Shown: piece after piece, positions 7,405-31,893 of the stretch
How the letters are laid out: each line of letters opens with the position of its first letter
Position numbering within the stretch: position 1 is the first letter of the stretch
Made by a program: the position numbers and the translations under genes
Source of the DNA: Candidatus Harrisonbacteria bacterium
GTDB taxonomy: Bacteria; Patescibacteriota; Minisyncoccia; UBA6257; 02-FULL-45-10c
Direction of reading: 5' to 3'
Length of the DNA stretch: 64,000 nucleotides
NCBI GenBank assembly: GCA_016214655.1
Contig: JACROC010000005.1
Location: 195,078-259,077 of the forward strand
Notes under the pieces: model-generated
Database searches by the model: none
What the model was told of the DNA's origin: nothing
Seen by the model: only the letters and a program-made list of their open reading frames with translations

Positions 7405-7475
7405 ATATATTTTCCCGATTAATTAACTCCTTATTTACTTACAATTAGTATAACATATCAGATACTAAAAAGCCA

Positions 7476-7513
7476 GTAAAAAGAAAGCCCCCTCAACTAC
7501 CAGAAGAGGGGGC
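7476..7513 (-). terminator. Intrinsic terminator ending the unknown RNA
   Basis: gccccctc (7487-7494)/gagggggc (7506-7513) stem followed on the minus strand by TTTCTTTTT. Confidence 0.8.
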
Positions 7514-7927
7514 GGCGAGCGCCTCGTTTGTCGCTGGTCTCTGATAACCAGCCTAGTCCCGTCGGACTGAGACACTCTAAGGAGCTTATTTGGTTAGATC
7601 GCGCGTACTCCCTATGTCAACCACGCGCGACCAGGAACGCTTACCAGGTGGTCAGAAGACCTGGCGTATCTGTGAGCTGTCTCCCGTGCCCTGCACGAGA
7701 TAACAACCAGGATGCGCTCCACGGTAATACGGATGGGTTTTTCGCTAGGTGGCAACCCAGCTAAAGCAACCTCACGCGTTGCTTTCCTCCCACCGCCCCA
7801 TAATGATCCCTCTTTGAGAAACCACGCTGGAACCAGATTCCAAACTGATGCCTCGGTCCGGTGCCAATGAAGGTACTACAGTCTAGCCGGGGCGCCCCTT
7901 GCGGAGCCTTCCGTCAGCTTCGACAAA
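7480..7927 (-). ncRNA. Candidate large structured ncRNA, family unknown
   Basis: GC-rich intergenic region with many hairpins, end pairing TTTGTCG/CGACAAA, own promoter and terminator. Confidence 0.7.
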
Positions 7928-7930
7928 TTA

Positions 7931-7959
7931 AATATAGCATATAATCCAATTCTTGTCAA
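7931..7959 (-). promoter_or_regulatory. Sigma70 promoter TTGACA-17-TATATT with extended -10 TG
   Basis: -35 at 7959-7954 overlaps the rpoD stop codon; -10 at 7936-7931. Confidence 0.8.
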
Positions 7960-26983: not shown

Positions 26984-27961
26984 TTATTTTAAAACTATCC
27001 GGCGCAATTTGTAAGCATTCCCATGCCTCAATAATCCCAAATAAGAATTTATGATTTCTGGTTTTGGCAATTCTTGTATCCTCTTCATCATCCTTCTTTT
27101 AGTCGTTGTCCTTAATATCCGATGATCTAAAAAATTCACCCAGCCAAGAAAATCCACTCCGGAAGCAAGAGTTTTGATGGAAACTTTATTCGGGTGAAGC
27201 TCTAAAGATAATGTCTCATTCAGGAACGCTCTTATAAATAAGAGTGAGCGATTTAATGATTCTTTGTTTTCAGACAAAATCACAAAATCATCCGCATATC
27301 TTATGTAATATCTGGCCTTTAGTTTGTGCTTCATAAATCGGTCAAATTCATTCATATAGATATTGACTAGTAATTGGGAGGTTAGATTGCCTAGCGGCAA
27401 GCCGATTCCTGGCTTAACCTCAAAGCTATCAATGACTCTATCCAATAACCATAAGATATCTTTGTCTGGAATATGGCTGACCAGAATCTTCTTTAAGATG
27501 GAATGGTCAATATTGGCAAAGAATTTCTTGATATCGCACTTTAATATCCAGTAAGTTTGAGTGTTATTTTGACTGACTTTGTAGGAAAAATCCCGAAATC
27601 GGTTAATGGCTTTATGAGTTCCTTTGTTTAGACGGCAGGAATAGGAATCGGCAATAAAAATTTGGTCAAAAAATGGGTAGAGTATCCTATATATTGCGTG
27701 GTGTAATAATCTGTCTCTTACTTGGGCTTTATGGATATTTCTGGGTTTAGGGTCGCAGATATTGAATGCCTGGTACCCGCCGTGTACATACGTTTGGTTG
27801 CGAAGATCATTATGAAGCGATAGGATATTATCCATCAGATTAAAAGAGAATTCCTGGACATCTGGCTTGCTCCTTTTCCCTCTTACAAATTCTTTCCAGG
27901 CCTCTAATAAATTCTCAATGCTAATAATATCTTCAAATTTATGGCGCAATTGAATTTTCAT
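26984..27961 (-). CDS. DGR reverse transcriptase
   Basis: PKPRNI, RDRLLHHA, LKCDIKKFF, GLPLGNLTSQ (DGR-type SQ), YIRYADDF, VDFLG; no maturase or endonuclease domain. Confidence 0.95.
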   Translation of the reverse strand: MKIQLRHKFEDIISIENLLEAWKEFVRGKRSKPDVQEFSFNLMDNILSLHNDLRNQTYVHGGYQAFNICDPKPRNIHKAQVRDRLLHHAIYRILYPFFDQIFIADSYSCRLNKGTHKAINRFRDFSYKVSQNNTQTYWILKCDIKKFFANIDHSILKKILVSHIPDKDILWLLDRVIDSFEVKPGIGLPLGNLTSQLLVNIYMNEFDRFMKHKLKARYYIRYADDFVILSENKESLNRSLLFIRAFLNETLSLELHPNKVSIKTLASGVDFLGWVNFLDHRILRTTTKRRMMKRIQELPKPEIINSYLGLLRHGNAYKLRRIVLK

Positions 27962-27985
27962 AAAAATAATTTTTCCCGGGAAGCG

Positions 27986-27996
27986 CCCCCCCCCCC
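27986..27996. repeat. C11 homopolymer between divergent RT and avd starts
   Basis: aagcg-CCCCCCCCCCC-gact. Confidence 0.9.
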
Positions 27997-28001
27997 GACT
28001 T

Positions 28002-28370
28002 TTGCCGCTAATCCAGAAAACTAAGGACGCCTATCTGCTTTGGTATGGCTATTACCAAATCCTGCCTAAACTCCACCGGCACTCTCTAGGTCAGAAAGTT
28101 GATACTCTTTTTGTTGAAATTATAGAAATGCTCTCAACAGCCAATTTTCTTATCAGAGAAGAAAAATTGCCCTATGTTCGTGTGGCTATAAGAAAAGCAG
28201 ATACGCTGAAGATATTTTTAATGATGCTTTGGGAAACTAAATCGCTGGATAATAAAAAATACATCGCATTATCAACACAAATAGGCGAAATAGGCAGAAT
28301 GCTAGGCGGTTGGAGCGGCCAGCTTATCAAACAAGCTCAAGATAAACAAAACTCTCCTGACAAAAAGTGA
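28002..28370 (+). CDS. avd: Avd-like four-helix-bundle accessory protein, antisense to TR/RT; start uncertain (TTG 28002, or ATG 27941 if the tract is C10)
   Basis: LPKLHRHSLGQKVD..EIGRMLGGW signature of bAvd; located between TR and RT. Confidence 0.88.
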   Translation: MPLIQKTKDAYLLWYGYYQILPKLHRHSLGQKVDTLFVEIIEMLSTANFLIREEKLPYVRVAIRKADTLKIFLMMLWETKSLDNKKYIALSTQIGEIGRMLGGWSGQLIKQAQDKQNSPDKK

Positions 28371-28391
28371 GGAGAGAAATGAAGAGAGTTT

Positions 28392-28514
28392 CGAGAACGG
28401 CAGACGGATCGTTAACATTCCAGTCGTTGTCAAGCCAGTTGTAGTTCCAGTTCCACCTGCCATCGTTCCAGTACAGATACAGGACGTAGCGGTTGCCATT
28501 CGGGTTCCGAAGAA
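28392..28514 (-). repeat. DGR template repeat (TR)
   Basis: 123 bp aligned ungapped to 28879-29001; 10 Asn (AAC/AAT) codons; 29 adenines on the minus strand. Confidence 0.95.
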
Positions 28515-28783
28515 TTATATGGAATATCGTCTGTGCCACCACCCCTTGAATACTCTTAGAGTTGTATCGTATCCGGTATATCATTCAGTAGAATGACCTA
28601 CTGGGTTAATACCTTAATATTCCATACCAAGTATCTTCATTTTTTGTTGAAGTGTCTGCATACACCACTCTATCCGAAACCGTGATCGCGGATACTCCCG
28701 ATGTATGGATACTGGGTTCGGTAGCGGAAAACCGTAATCGTCCGCGTATTCACCTACTGCCAAATTTATTTTAGCAAAAAAAT

Positions 28784-28817
28784 AATCCCCTGCACAGGCT
28801 TGCCTGTGCAGGGGATT
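28784..28817 (-). terminator. Perfect hairpin 3' of the VR (DGR cruciform and/or terminator)
   Basis: aatcccctgcacaggc-tt-gcctgtgcaggggatt, followed on the minus strand by ATTTTTT. Confidence 0.8.
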
Positions 28818-28870
28818 CTAAGGGCTAAGTTGCAAAGGGCATACAGTGCAAAGTAACCCAGTACTGAAGA

Positions 28871-29506
28871 CTAACTTGCGAGAACGGCAGACGGACCGTC
28901 AACATCCCAGTCGCTGCCAAGCCAGTTGCAGCTCCAGTGCCACCTGCCATCGAACCAGTACAGACACAGGACGTAGCGGTCGCCATCCGGGTACCGAAGA
29001 ACCGTTCCATCAAAGAAGATGAAACGGATGTTGCCGTTCACCTTCTCTTTCCACGATTCGGGGATGAGGAGCTGGTTCTCCCAGAGCGTCTGGAAGACCT
29101 TGGCATCCAGGCGGATGTGACCCGCCTTCTTCAGCCGTTTCAGCTTTTCCTCACCGGTGATCGACGTCTCGTTCGGATTGAGCATCGTCTCGAAGCGGAC
29201 CTTGGACAGGTCGACTTCGGTGAGCGCCTCCGAACGGGCGTCCGTGTCTTCGCCGACAACCGACCAACCCTTGCCGATGAAGGCGACGGGGTCGAACGGC
29301 TTGGCGCGATCGATCTTCAGGATCTTCGGTTCCCCGACGAGGACCTTTCCGCCGTTCTTGAGGAAGGCAGTGAACTGCTGTCCCGCCTGACGAGGGTCGT
29401 TGATGATTTTCTGGATGGTGTCGCTATCCAGATTGTCCCAGTCTGCGTTGTTAGCGAGGACTGAGAACAGGTTGAGGGACTGACCGGTAGTGATGGCTTT
29501 TCCCAT
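28871..29506 (-). CDS. DGR target protein with C-terminal variable region
   Basis: C-terminus LRYPDGDRYVLCLYWFDGRWHWSCNWLGSDWDVDGPSAVLAS matches the TR translation; AAAGGAG RBS; visibly GC-richer than host genes. Confidence 0.93.
   Translation of the reverse strand: MGKAITTGQSLNLFSVLANNADWDNLDSDTIQKIINDPRQAGQQFTAFLKNGGKVLVGEPKILKIDRAKPFDPVAFIGKGWSVVGEDTDARSEALTEVDLSKVRFETMLNPNETSITGEEKLKRLKKAGHIRLDAKVFQTLWENQLLIPESWKEKVNGNIRFIFFDGTVLRYPDGDRYVLCLYWFDGRWHWSCNWLGSDWDVDGPSAVLAS
28879..29001 (-). repeat. DGR variable repeat (VR)
   Basis: 14 mismatches to TR: 10 A>G, 3 A>T, 1 A>C. Confidence 0.95.
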
Positions 29507-29702: not shown

Positions 29703-29799
29703 AAAATAAGGTTTTTGGATATTCAGGCTGGCGGTGGGATCGATTTCGCTCCCTTTAGGGAGCTTTATAAATATAGGCGATATCCAAAAACCTTATTTT
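29703..29799. repeat. 20-bp perfect inverted repeat enclosing a small hairpin
   Basis: aaaataaggtttttggatat (29703-29722)/atatccaaaaaccttatttt (29780-29799). Confidence 0.8.
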
Positions 29800-30551
29800 G
29801 TTTCCGAATCCCACTCTTTAATGGCTTTTTCCCAACGCTGTAAATTCCCACAGTCATGCCACTTCCCTTTTGATTTATAAGCCGCAAGTTTTCGTTCGGC
29901 GGCAAGCTTCGGAAAAAGGTCCTTTTCAATCATTAAAAATTTTTCACCGCTTTGTATTTTGTCGCTTAAATGTTCACGCACTTTCGGGTCAATTAAATAA
30001 AGACCCGAAGAAATAAAATTTGTCGGCGGATTTTCCGGTTTTTCCAAAAAACTGTGGATGTGATCGCCATCGCAAATTAAAACACCATACTCCTGCGGAT
30101 TTGATACTTCCACTGCCGCAATAGTTGCCAATCCTCCGACCTTGCGATGGTGGGCCGCCATTTCAGTCAAATTTACCTCTTTTAATTCATCGCCATTAGT
30201 TAAGAAAAATGGCTCACTGCCAGTCCAGGTATGTAGCTTATGTGCCCAATAGCCAAGCGTACCCATTGGCTCCTCCTCAACCATCAAATTTACCCACACG
30301 CCGCCAAGGTCATTCTGCCAACGCCGCAACCACCAAGAAAAATCTTCAAAATCACCTTGCCTGACCGTAATAGCAACTTCTTCTATGCCATGCTTTTTAA
30401 ACATCTCGATCAAATAATTTATGATCGGTTTTTTATTGACAGTTAAAAGCGGTTTTGGAGTTTCCAAGGTCACCGGATAAAGACGAGCGCCTTTCCCGCC
30501 GGCTAAAATTATTGCTTTGCGAACTTTCTGCATATTATTAAAATACAACAA
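29793..30551 (-). CDS. NDP-sugar pyrophosphorylase/nucleotidyltransferase
   Basis: AIILAGGKGARLYPVT..PKPLL, NGD, FLEKP, WHDCG. Confidence 0.9.
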   Translation of the reverse strand: MLYFNNMQKVRKAIILAGGKGARLYPVTLETPKPLLTVNKKPIINYLIEMFKKHGIEEVAITVRQGDFEDFSWWLRRWQNDLGGVWVNLMVEEEPMGTLGYWAHKLHTWTGSEPFFLTNGDELKEVNLTEMAAHHRKVGGLATIAAVEVSNPQEYGVLICDGDHIHSFLEKPENPPTNFISSGLYLIDPKVREHLSDKIQSGEKFLMIEKDLFPKLAAERKLAAYKSKGKWHDCGNLQRWEKAIKEWDSETK

Positions 30552-30587
30552 ATTTTAAGTAATAAAAGTCATAGAGCTAATTTTGCT

Positions 30588-30737
30588 AATATCCGTCGCT
30601 TTCTTCCGTGCGGCAATTACGGAACCCTGAAATACTTGGATTTTTGCGAAGCAAAAAATTTCAGGGTGAGGCATAGGCGCTCCGATCCGCAGGAGATCGA
30701 AGACGCCGGTGCCGGTAGGAAGAAAGCAATGGATATA
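30588..30737. other. Structured intergenic element (three-way junction)
   Basis: atatccgtcgctttcttcc/ggaagaaagcaatggatat closing stem; accctgaaat/atttcagggt and ggcgctccgatc/gatcgaagacgcc arms. Confidence 0.5.
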
Positions 30738-30751
30738 AATAAAAATTAAAT

Positions 30752-31105
30752 AAAAAAAGGCCGGGGAAACCGATGTCGCGTTACAGGCGACTGGTTTCCC
30801 CGGCGGGTAAAACGTTGGCAACGCCCCATCTTAAGCCGTGTATAGGCAGGATGGATAGCGTTGCCAAAATTGGCGGTCGGAAAATGCACTTGGCACTTCA
30901 GGGGGTCGAAGTTTACCTTGGCCCCCTTACTATGCACGCCTTTTGCTCAATTGCCCCCACTTTAGAATAAAGGGGCGGGAGTCGGATGGTTGGCGACCTG
31001 GGAGGATTTCTGCGATCGCCGCGCTAAGGCTCCCATTGAGCAGTCAGGTACCCGCGAAATTATTTGCCTTTCGTGGGTTGCATTTTCCGACCAAATCAAA
31101 GAACG
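30752..31105 (-). ncRNA. Candidate large structured ncRNA, family unknown
   Basis: 14-bp long-range helix 30875-30888/31079-31092, many hairpins, TTGACA-16-TATTGT promoter (31145-31118), terminator 30760-30804 plus U-tract. Confidence 0.65.
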
Positions 31106-31317
31106 AACTGTAAATATACAATAGCATACTATAAAATTTTGTCAATAGTGACAAATCTTAGAATGGGTTATATAATTTACAATAAATTTGAATAAAGTAC
31201 CCCGTATAAATTTTACTCTTGGATATAGTAAAGATAAAATTTATACGGGATGCTCATTTTTGCAGCCAATCGGGCTGCGTTAGTAAATTAACTTGCCCTC
31301 TTGGGCAAAAATGGCAC

Positions 31318-31893
31318 ATGCTAAGCTACAACGAATTAAAAATTGGAACGATGTTCAAGTTTGAAGGAACTCCGTATGAGGTGCTGGATTATGAGTTCCT
31401 CCGGATGCAACAGAGAAAACCGGTCGCCAAGACTAGGATTAAAAATCTGCTTACGGGCCAAGTAATTGAACGAAACTTCCACCAAAATGAATCGCTGGAA
31501 TCCATAGAAATAGACAGGCAGGAGATCGTCTACTTATACAATAATCGCGGTGAGTTTTGGTTCTGCGAAAAAGGCAACCCGAAGAACCGCTTCAAACTGG
31601 AAGAATCCAAAATCGGACCGGCTGCAAAATTCCTAAAATCAAACAGCGAAGTCACGGCTGTAAAACTGGATGACCAGATTATCAGCGTTAAAGCGCCGAT
31701 TAAAATTGATTTGAAAATTACCGAAGCGCCTCCAGGAGAACGAGGCAACACTGCCCAAGGCGGAAGCAAGCTGGCTACCGTAGAAACTGGCGCTCAAGTT
31801 TATGTGCCGCTCTTCGTAAACACGGGTGATGTCATACGGGTAAATACAGAAACCGGACAATACGTTGAAAGAATGGAAAAGTCCAAGGAATAA
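31318..31893 (+). CDS. efp: Elongation factor P
   Basis: MLSYNELKIG..RMQQRKPV..PPGERGNTAQGGSK.A.VETG..VPLFVN.GD..GQYVER. Confidence 0.95.
   Translation: MLSYNELKIGTMFKFEGTPYEVLDYEFLRMQQRKPVAKTRIKNLLTGQVIERNFHQNESLESIEIDRQEIVYLYNNRGEFWFCEKGNPKNRFKLEESKIGPAAKFLKSNSEVTAVKLDDQIISVKAPIKIDLKITEAPPGERGNTAQGGSKLATVETGAQVYVPLFVNTGDVIRVNTETGQYVERMEKSKE

Follow-up and report, generated by a model that had tools for sequence, protein, structure and literature searches.

The large 'ornate' orphan non-coding RNAs (ncRNAs) of bacteria, such as raiA, OLE, ROOL and GOLLD, came out of comparative genomics and are all in Rfam, and orphan structured RNAs with a mere handful of members are found often. The lysine and cobalamin riboswitches and the glmS ribozyme, a sensor of a cell-wall precursor, represent terminating classes in which several helices are closed by a P1 helix. 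The Patescibacteria, or candidate phyla radiation (CPR), carry very small genomes in which little DNA is to spare, and almost nothing has been learned about their ncRNAs. The present analysis concerns a structured RNA encoded on the minus strand of a 64,000-nt stretch of a Candidatus Harrisonbacteria genome (assembly GCA_016214655.1, contig JACROC010000005.1, positions 195,078 to 259,077), referred to as a whole as the window, and situated between the elongation factor P gene (efp) and a sugar-1-phosphate nucleotidyltransferase gene. No description of such RNAs was found in the literature searched, including passages of PMC11665869.

This RNA resembles raiA, OLE, ROOL and GOLLD in forming a GC-rich block free of open reading frames (ORFs) in an AT-rich genome, in its covarying helices around multi-way junctions, in carrying its own transcription signals and in having a function that cannot be read from its neighbours. 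It differs from them in matching none of their models even at E ≤10, in its smaller size (a 222-nt core) and in a far narrower distribution, namely two genera and two near-identical metagenomic partial copies. Terminating riboswitches share with it a P1-closed junction, an intrinsic terminator following that junction and a sugar-nucleotide/cell-wall gene downstream on the same strand, whereas the absence of a competing anti-terminator fold, the downstream gene's apparent own promoter, the lack of an Rfam match and the fact that the RNA is missing ahead of the same gene in most relatives set it apart. The window's other structured RNA (about 7440-7955) belongs to the same genome, is likewise GC-rich and without an Rfam match, and has no similarity to the core; a model of the core matched only itself within the window, in agreement with the initial annotation, which had seen no similarity to that RNA (given there as 7480-7927). 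A further comparison is offered by element 2, a dispersed structured repeat of ~125 nt that is not part of the RNA and lies 30 nt downstream of it on the minus strand (30602..30723). Both are structured, covarying, intergenic and confined to the same bacterial family, but element 2 occurs in up to 14 copies per genome whereas the RNA is single copy, and the two have no sequence relation.

Our analysis demonstrated that the RNA belongs to a family that is not in Rfam, although its general kind, the orphan structured ncRNA, is familiar. On balance, and with modest confidence, we read it as a gene for a structured RNA that likely acts independently and in trans and is not a control element of its neighbour. 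An independent ncRNA had been proposed at this position, and the proposal was supported by the lack of an Rfam family, compensatory changes in a second genus, the lack of a conserved ORF and the presence of both a promoter and a terminator.

The conserved 222-nt core (30873..31094, minus strand) was delimited from the minimum free energy (MFE) fold, a homologue in a second genus and compensatory pairs, and folds into a four-way junction. Its closing helix P1 has 15 pairs (31093-31079 with 30888-30874), 14 of them Watson-Crick and one U-G, so that the perfect 14-bp helix described in the initial annotation (31092-31079/30888-30875) was confirmed and lengthened by the U-G pair in the MFE fold. 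Stacked directly on P1 is the P2 hairpin (31078-31050), followed by the 8-pair helix P3 (31042-31035 with 30951-30944) which leads to the inner three-way junction, where a long arm of variable length (31034-30977) and a short hairpin (30976-30953) branch off, and by the P4 hairpin with a GNRA-plus-A loop (30937-30892). The inner helices noted earlier were all present, UGCUCAAU/AUUGAGCA and GGGGG/CCCCC as described and ACCCACGAAA/UUUCGCGGGU with one A-C mismatch on the RNA strand.

Folding of the 359-nt stretch containing the core gave -157 kcal/mol in comparison to -112.7 +/- 6.1 kcal/mol for 100 shuffled sequences (z -7.2), none of which was as stable. The opposite strand was equally stable (-170.5, z -8.5), indicating that energy alone cannot assign the strand, and folding energy was dropped as a strand test.

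The genome holding the window (G000; 909 kb in 8 contigs, rated 98% complete) has a single copy of the RNA, and the whole RNA compared by blastn with 40 relatives matched nothing besides itself. A sensitive blastn search of the efp neighbourhoods of 20 family genomes gave one match (E 7e-8, upstream of efp and divergent from it), in a genome of a different genus in the same family (G001). A covariance model built from a single sequence, the G000 core with its own MFE structure, identified the same copy at L027:694-927(-) with 58.5 bits (E 8e-18), the only model match in G001, and no other match in the 20 loci. This homologue occupies the same gap between efp and the nucleotidyltransferase gene as the RNA of the window. 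Folded independently, it adopted the same P1/P2/P3/P4 layout with a z score of -7.5. Letters that were invariant in both genera comprised CGGAAAAYGCA / UGCRUUUUCCG in P1, GCCAAG immediately ahead of the 3' strand of P1, and YUCCCGCCC ... GGGGCAA at the inner junction.

Two partial copies were recovered by aligning contigs of three groundwater runs (X1-X3) to the RNA stretch, in which uncovered parts are uninformative. Run X1 gave pieces that were 100% identical and is not counted as independent, as it may be the source sample. Run X2 contributed a 151-nt contig over 30799-30949 with 9 differences (~94% identical), and run X3 a 438-nt contig over 30904-31145 with 24 differences and 7 gaps (~90% identical). 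The known set therefore consists of two full and two partial sequences.

Overall, the carriers identified with the covariance model numbered 2 among the 23 genomes of the family; in samples of 151 genomes each, there were 2 for the order and 1 for the class, and all counts take in the genome of the window itself. The order and class searches used strict filters with the single-sequence model, which distant relatives could escape, and their outcome is to be read as 'not found' and not as absence. A conserved 20-mer matched once in genome contigs, with a model score and alignment the same as those of the G001 copy, and gave 0 matches in metagenome contigs. A three-motif pattern had 0 matches in viral contigs; its 7 metagenome matches were treated as chance, as none fitted the model at E ≤1 and they lay in unrelated, mostly GC-rich contexts. 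The two carriers were not closest relatives by efp (70% identity, in comparison to up to 82% with non-carriers), and by the ATPase and the nucleotidyltransferase they were about as distant from each other as from the remaining genomes. This indicated that the RNA has either been lost several times or moved between lineages.

The homologue search with covariation analysis suggested in the initial annotation supported the fold. In an alignment of the two full sequences fitted to the model (A4), and biased toward it for that reason, 97% of 132 cells were standard pairs and 20 of 71 pairs had changed on both sides, 5 of the 8 pairs of P3 being compensatory. Controls in which the 3' partners were slid by 1-3 columns gave 0-3 both-side changes and 32-49% pairing, and the values observed in A4 were reached in 0 of 500 shuffles. 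The long arm varied in length, its central stretch being 17 nt in one genome and 41 nt in the other by model alignment, while its base was kept. Support separate from this alignment came from the independent fold of the G001 copy and from the partial copies. Among the differences listed for the latter (19 of the 24 in the case of X3), 17 substitutions fell inside the core, 14 from X3 and 3 from the 9 differences of X2, and 9 of them were in stems, where all but one kept a standard pair. Of these 8 pair-keeping substitutions, 5 made G-U pairs, which on the plus strand would be A-C mismatches, and this supports the minus strand. In A4 the corresponding count was 8 G-U cells against 1 A-C cell, in a structure drawn from the minus-strand fold and hence biased that way. 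The assignment of the RNA to the minus strand is thus supported by the promoter and terminator, the G-U bias, the partial-copy substitutions and the combination of an intact promoter with a variable leader in X3.

The minus-strand promoter TTGACA-16-TATTGT lies where it had been annotated (31145-31118), matches the consensus at 10 of 12 positions, has a TG ahead of the -10 box (TTGACA-16-TG-n-TATTGT) and is separated from the 222-nt core by 17-18 nt. In the X3 copy the promoter block 31118-31145 had no listed difference, and the alignment ended exactly at the -35 box. Transcription is predicted from the -10 box to start at ~31111, followed by an unpaired 5' leader of ~17 nt (31095..31111) that includes the boxA-like GUUCUUUGA (31104-31096). 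This leader was weakly conserved, with 3 substitutions and 4 indels listed at 31093-31110 in X3, where most of the indels occurred. The motif GTTCTTTGA noted earlier does exist at 31104-31096, but its reading as boxA did not stand. The 9-mer occurred 2 times in the window in comparison to 0.71 expected, with at least 2 occurrences in 17 of 100 shuffles, and in X3 it was broken by 3 substitutions and 2 insertions and lay within the least conserved part of that copy. Its counterpart in G001 was merely a loose, UCUUU-containing one, and no identical motif was seen by eye in the 16S leader. A role in Nus-factor antitermination was consequently set aside as chance on the grounds of the shuffle frequency and the disruption in X3.

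Downstream of the core, a long hairpin of 19 pairs plus 3 (UUGGCAACGC / GCGUUGCCAA with extensions; 30811..30871) was confirmed in the MFE fold, as was the 12-bp GC terminator with its U-tract (30752..30806), which has a 12-pair GC-rich stem (30804-30760), an inner 5-pair stem-loop, CC and a U7 ending at 30752. A simple terminator scan had missed it on account of that scan's loop limit of 8. The long hairpin is restricted to G000-type copies and is covered by the X2 contig; in G001 it is lacking, and the terminator comes after P1 and 9 unpaired nt in the fold. For the G001 copy, the promoter (TTGACA-16-TG-TATAAT) matches the consensus at 12 of 12 positions and the terminator consists of 9 pairs and a T-run, both again on the minus strand, indicating that the fold is bracketed by a promoter and a terminator in both genomes. 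In G000 the transcript would run from ~31111 to ~30752, or ~360 nt.

The designation of the RNA as unnamed was borne out by Rfam 15 (4227 models, gathering thresholds), which gave no family match to the stretch and only 4 tRNAs in the entire window. Under permissive filters at E ≤10, the interval 30752-31110 contained only a plus-strand partial match to rli47 with 16.7 bits, in comparison to a gathering score of 200, and locus L027 with the G001 copy had no Rfam match at E ≤1. An identity with RNase P RNA or tmRNA was excluded, as the copies of this genome are located elsewhere (C3:6586-6939, 112.9 bits, and C7:71724-72096, 125.5 bits, respectively). A conserved small ORF, named in the initial annotation as an observation that would speak against an RNA gene, was looked for and not found, with stops in every frame of both the G000 and G001 copies. 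The tblastx matches between the two were merely ~16 aa long and spread alike across several frames, indicating plain nucleotide conservation, and the length differences between the copies would break any reading frame. A small protein gene was rejected, as no frame is open in both homologues.

If the RNA is an independent gene, the folded molecule would serve as a protein-binding scaffold and possibly as a catalyst, with the conserved junction letters as the putative binding or active site for a partner. Termination would be constitutive, and the nucleotidyltransferase gene would be transcribed from its own promoter beside its ATG. Its patchy distribution suggests that the RNA would be accessory and not housekeeping. 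When the 5' strand of P1 was blocked, the MFE prediction kept the terminator in both G000 and G001, and terminators that form regardless of P1 favour an independent trans-acting RNA over a riboswitch. Additionally, a -10-like hexamer 6-9 nt ahead of the nucleotidyltransferase ATG, with no Shine-Dalgarno sequence, was seen by eye in G001, G007, G008, G009 and G014 and less clearly in G000 (30533-30560), which suggests a leaderless mRNA with a promoter of its own. Several observations weigh against this interpretation. The transcript ends are predicted from promoter and terminator, the gene's own promoter was read by eye, and the covariation represents one deep comparison of two full and two partial sequences in a model-fitted alignment. 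A scaffold or ribozyme role, which we propose with low confidence, is the default reading for RNAs of this kind and not a result. Furthermore, in both genomes it is the same gene that follows the RNA directly on its strand, the G001 terminator is 45 nt from the nucleotidyltransferase ATG with no other minus-strand promoter found there by the scan, and the gap between efp and the nucleotidyltransferase gene gathers other inserts.

The position and spacing just described fit a cis-acting leader of the nucleotidyltransferase gene, riboswitch-like or a protein-binding attenuator, in which a ligand or factor at the P1-closed junction would set the read-through of the terminator. We regard this alternative as rather unlikely. 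The classic layout of an aptamer and its platform is a junction of several helices closed by P1, with an intrinsic terminator behind it, and in G001 the nucleotidyltransferase gene overlaps murC in an apparent operon, for which a cell-wall precursor would be a sensible signal. However, no anti-terminator pairing was found and the terminators were unchanged in the MFE folds with P1 blocked, while the hexamers and the missing Shine-Dalgarno sequences suggest a separate promoter for the gene. In G000, the core is separated from the gene by a 60-nt hairpin, the terminator, an element 2 copy and about 220 nt; in relatives, the two genes of this pair are 57-87 nt apart and the RNA does not stand between them. 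The whole neighbourhood is shared between the two carriers, and common descent alone predicts a shared position in two genomes.

The inserts in the gap also fit the RNA being the cargo or remnant of a structured element, selfish or mobile, that inserted at a hot spot; its structure would then be kept for the element itself or be recently decaying, and would serve no function in the host. The gap measures 57-87 nt in G008 and G009 in comparison to 533-887 nt in four genomes whose gaps differ in content, the dispersed element 2 adjoins the RNA, and the distribution is patchy (2 of 23 family genomes) in carriers that are not closest by efp. This origin appears unlikely, as the RNA is single copy in G000 with one model match in G001 and has a strong promoter of its own, and no transposase, integrase, direct repeats, target duplications or other mobility signature was seen beside it. 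Long-lasting selection on the fold is indicated instead by the 20 compensatory pairs and by junction letters conserved from one genus to the other. A highly divergent signal recognition particle (SRP) RNA or 6S RNA that standard models miss is far less credible still and was rejected. Neither the small and large SRP RNAs (RF00169, RF01854) nor 6S RNA (RF00013) were matched in G000, so that these slots look empty; yet the RNA is present in 2 of 23 family genomes whereas SRP RNA was undetected in all 23, and with the SRP54-type GTPase and M domains undetected in G000, the SRP protein that would bind it may itself be lacking. The four-way junction is also unlike the 6S rod with its central bubble, and by eye the RNA is without the SRP helix-8 loops and the GNAR tetraloop.

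The independent, trans-acting RNA gene that we favour is flanked by genes whose listed starts probably need adjustment. The NTP_transferase sugar-1-phosphate nucleotidyltransferase (29793..30533, minus strand, 246 aa; PF00483, E 6.4e-41) had NCBIfam matches that were all below equivalog cut-offs, and its start at TTG 30551 in the ORF list is probably wrong, as ATG 30533 agrees with its relatives. On the other side, efp (31315..31893, plus strand) is divergent from the RNA. Its ATG at 31315 follows from relatives starting MLSYNELK, while the ORF list gives TTG 31219, and 31219-31314 is probably an untranslated leader. Long palindromic hairpins lie between the RNA promoter and efp (31176-31310), with arms CCCGUAUAAAUUUUA...UAAAAUUUAUACGGG in G000. 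Sub-threshold Rfam matches at 31176-31290 (among them the trpB motif, with 29.3 bits where the gathering score is 59) belong to these efp leader hairpins outside the RNA and were discounted. A different hairpin, with arms beginning CCCCUUAGUGAAAC / CCCCGUAGUGAAAA, is shared by G001 (L027:1325-1410) and G004 (L016 gap; blastn E 0.008).

A survey of this intergenic region showed that it is an insertion hot spot. It measured 57-87 nt and was AT-rich in G008 and G009, 223 nt in G004, 533 nt in G007, 781 nt in G000, 853 nt in G014 and 887 nt in G001. Its content differed, with an ORF-like insert in G014, element 2 inside a long inverted repeat (~25 bp; z -11) in G007 and an extra 360-nt structured domain in G001, and six relatives with the same gene pair had no such RNA in the gap. 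In G010, a paralogous nucleotidyltransferase is located 27 nt from efp. The extra domain of G001 (L027:925-1290(-)) is rich in GC and highly structured, and the fold of the whole 636-nt stretch had a z score of -9.1; the domain is single copy in G001 and showed no similarity to anything in the window or in G000. The only consensus promoter of G001 lies ~360 nt upstream of the core, beyond this domain, and would give a transcript of about 620 nt; the domain may belong to the same RNA as a second domain or may have been inserted separately.

Farther downstream of the nucleotidyltransferase gene, the window carries a diversity-generating retroelement (DGR) with a reverse transcriptase (RT; 26984-27961), Avd and a target (28871-29506). 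The initial annotation had raised a link between the RNA and this DGR as speculative, and the co-occurrence check was unfavourable. In G001 the genes run in the order mnmA-murC-nucleotidyltransferase-RNA-efp, and murC and the nucleotidyltransferase gene overlap without a DGR between them (compare L035:389-2424), whereas in G000 the DGR cassette (26984-29506) is placed between these two genes. This overlap indicates that the G000 cassette is an insertion beside a pre-existing RNA locus. Of the 23 family genomes, 9 have a DGR-type RT and 2 have the RNA. Both carriers of the RNA do have a DGR somewhere, with the RT on contig C6 and the RNA on C7 in the case of G001. A DGR accessory RNA was rejected, as the G001 RNA has no adjacent DGR and 7 genomes bearing the RT lack the RNA.

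Element 2, the neighbouring repeat, was present in G000 in at least 10 copies of 69-88% identity, all intergenic and of varied orientation, including C5:127534-127661, C3:11638-11765, C3:20059-20183 and C7:164474-164590; a further copy lies at L013:2423-2537. Among the 23 family genomes, 11 contained it, G008 with up to 14 copies, and it also occurred on several different groundwater-run contigs. Its fold is a three-way junction with near-invariant junction letters, in which 24 of 43 pairs were compensatory among 10 copies, and Rfam gave no match to it at E ≤10. Its appearance is that of a small RNA family yet to be described, or of one resembling miniature inverted-repeat transposable elements (MITEs). 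As a dispersed repeat it was rejected as a private riboswitch of the nucleotidyltransferase gene, and a guide-like complementarity between the core and element 2 was discarded, the duplex energies of -71.9 and -66.4 being within those of shuffles (means -67.6 and -69.3).

Additionally, the SRP54 M domain (PF02978) and the SRP54-type GTPase domain (PF00448, common to Ffh/FtsY) were not detected in G000. RF00169 was matched in 0 of 23 family genomes and PF00448 exceeded the cut-off in 1 of 23, on one contig of G007, while all 14 control genomes were positive for both protein families. The SRP pathway thus seems to be missing in G000 and its family, with divergence, the first-look filter and assembly gaps as possible causes of this result; no paper on such a missing pathway was found in the portion of the literature that the search reached.

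The few sequences limit how far this RNA can be taken for now, and its distribution is very narrow so far. Speculatively, it could be the founding member of a new functional RNA class, a ribozyme or ribonucleoprotein core of ~220 nt built on a four-way junction, private to a few ultra-small groundwater CPR bacteria and passed between genera at the efp/nucleotidyltransferase hot spot, although we consider this rather doubtful. A structured RNA of 360 nt whose promoter is strong and whose fold is maintained across genera probably brings some benefit to the 0.9-Mb genome that retains it. If a partner protein or catalysis proved true, the RNA would represent a new class from a not-yet-culturable part of the tree. 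If instead it served as leader to the nucleotidyltransferase-murC genes, a new sensor tied to the supply of cell-wall precursors would be added in organisms that rely on hosts for building blocks.

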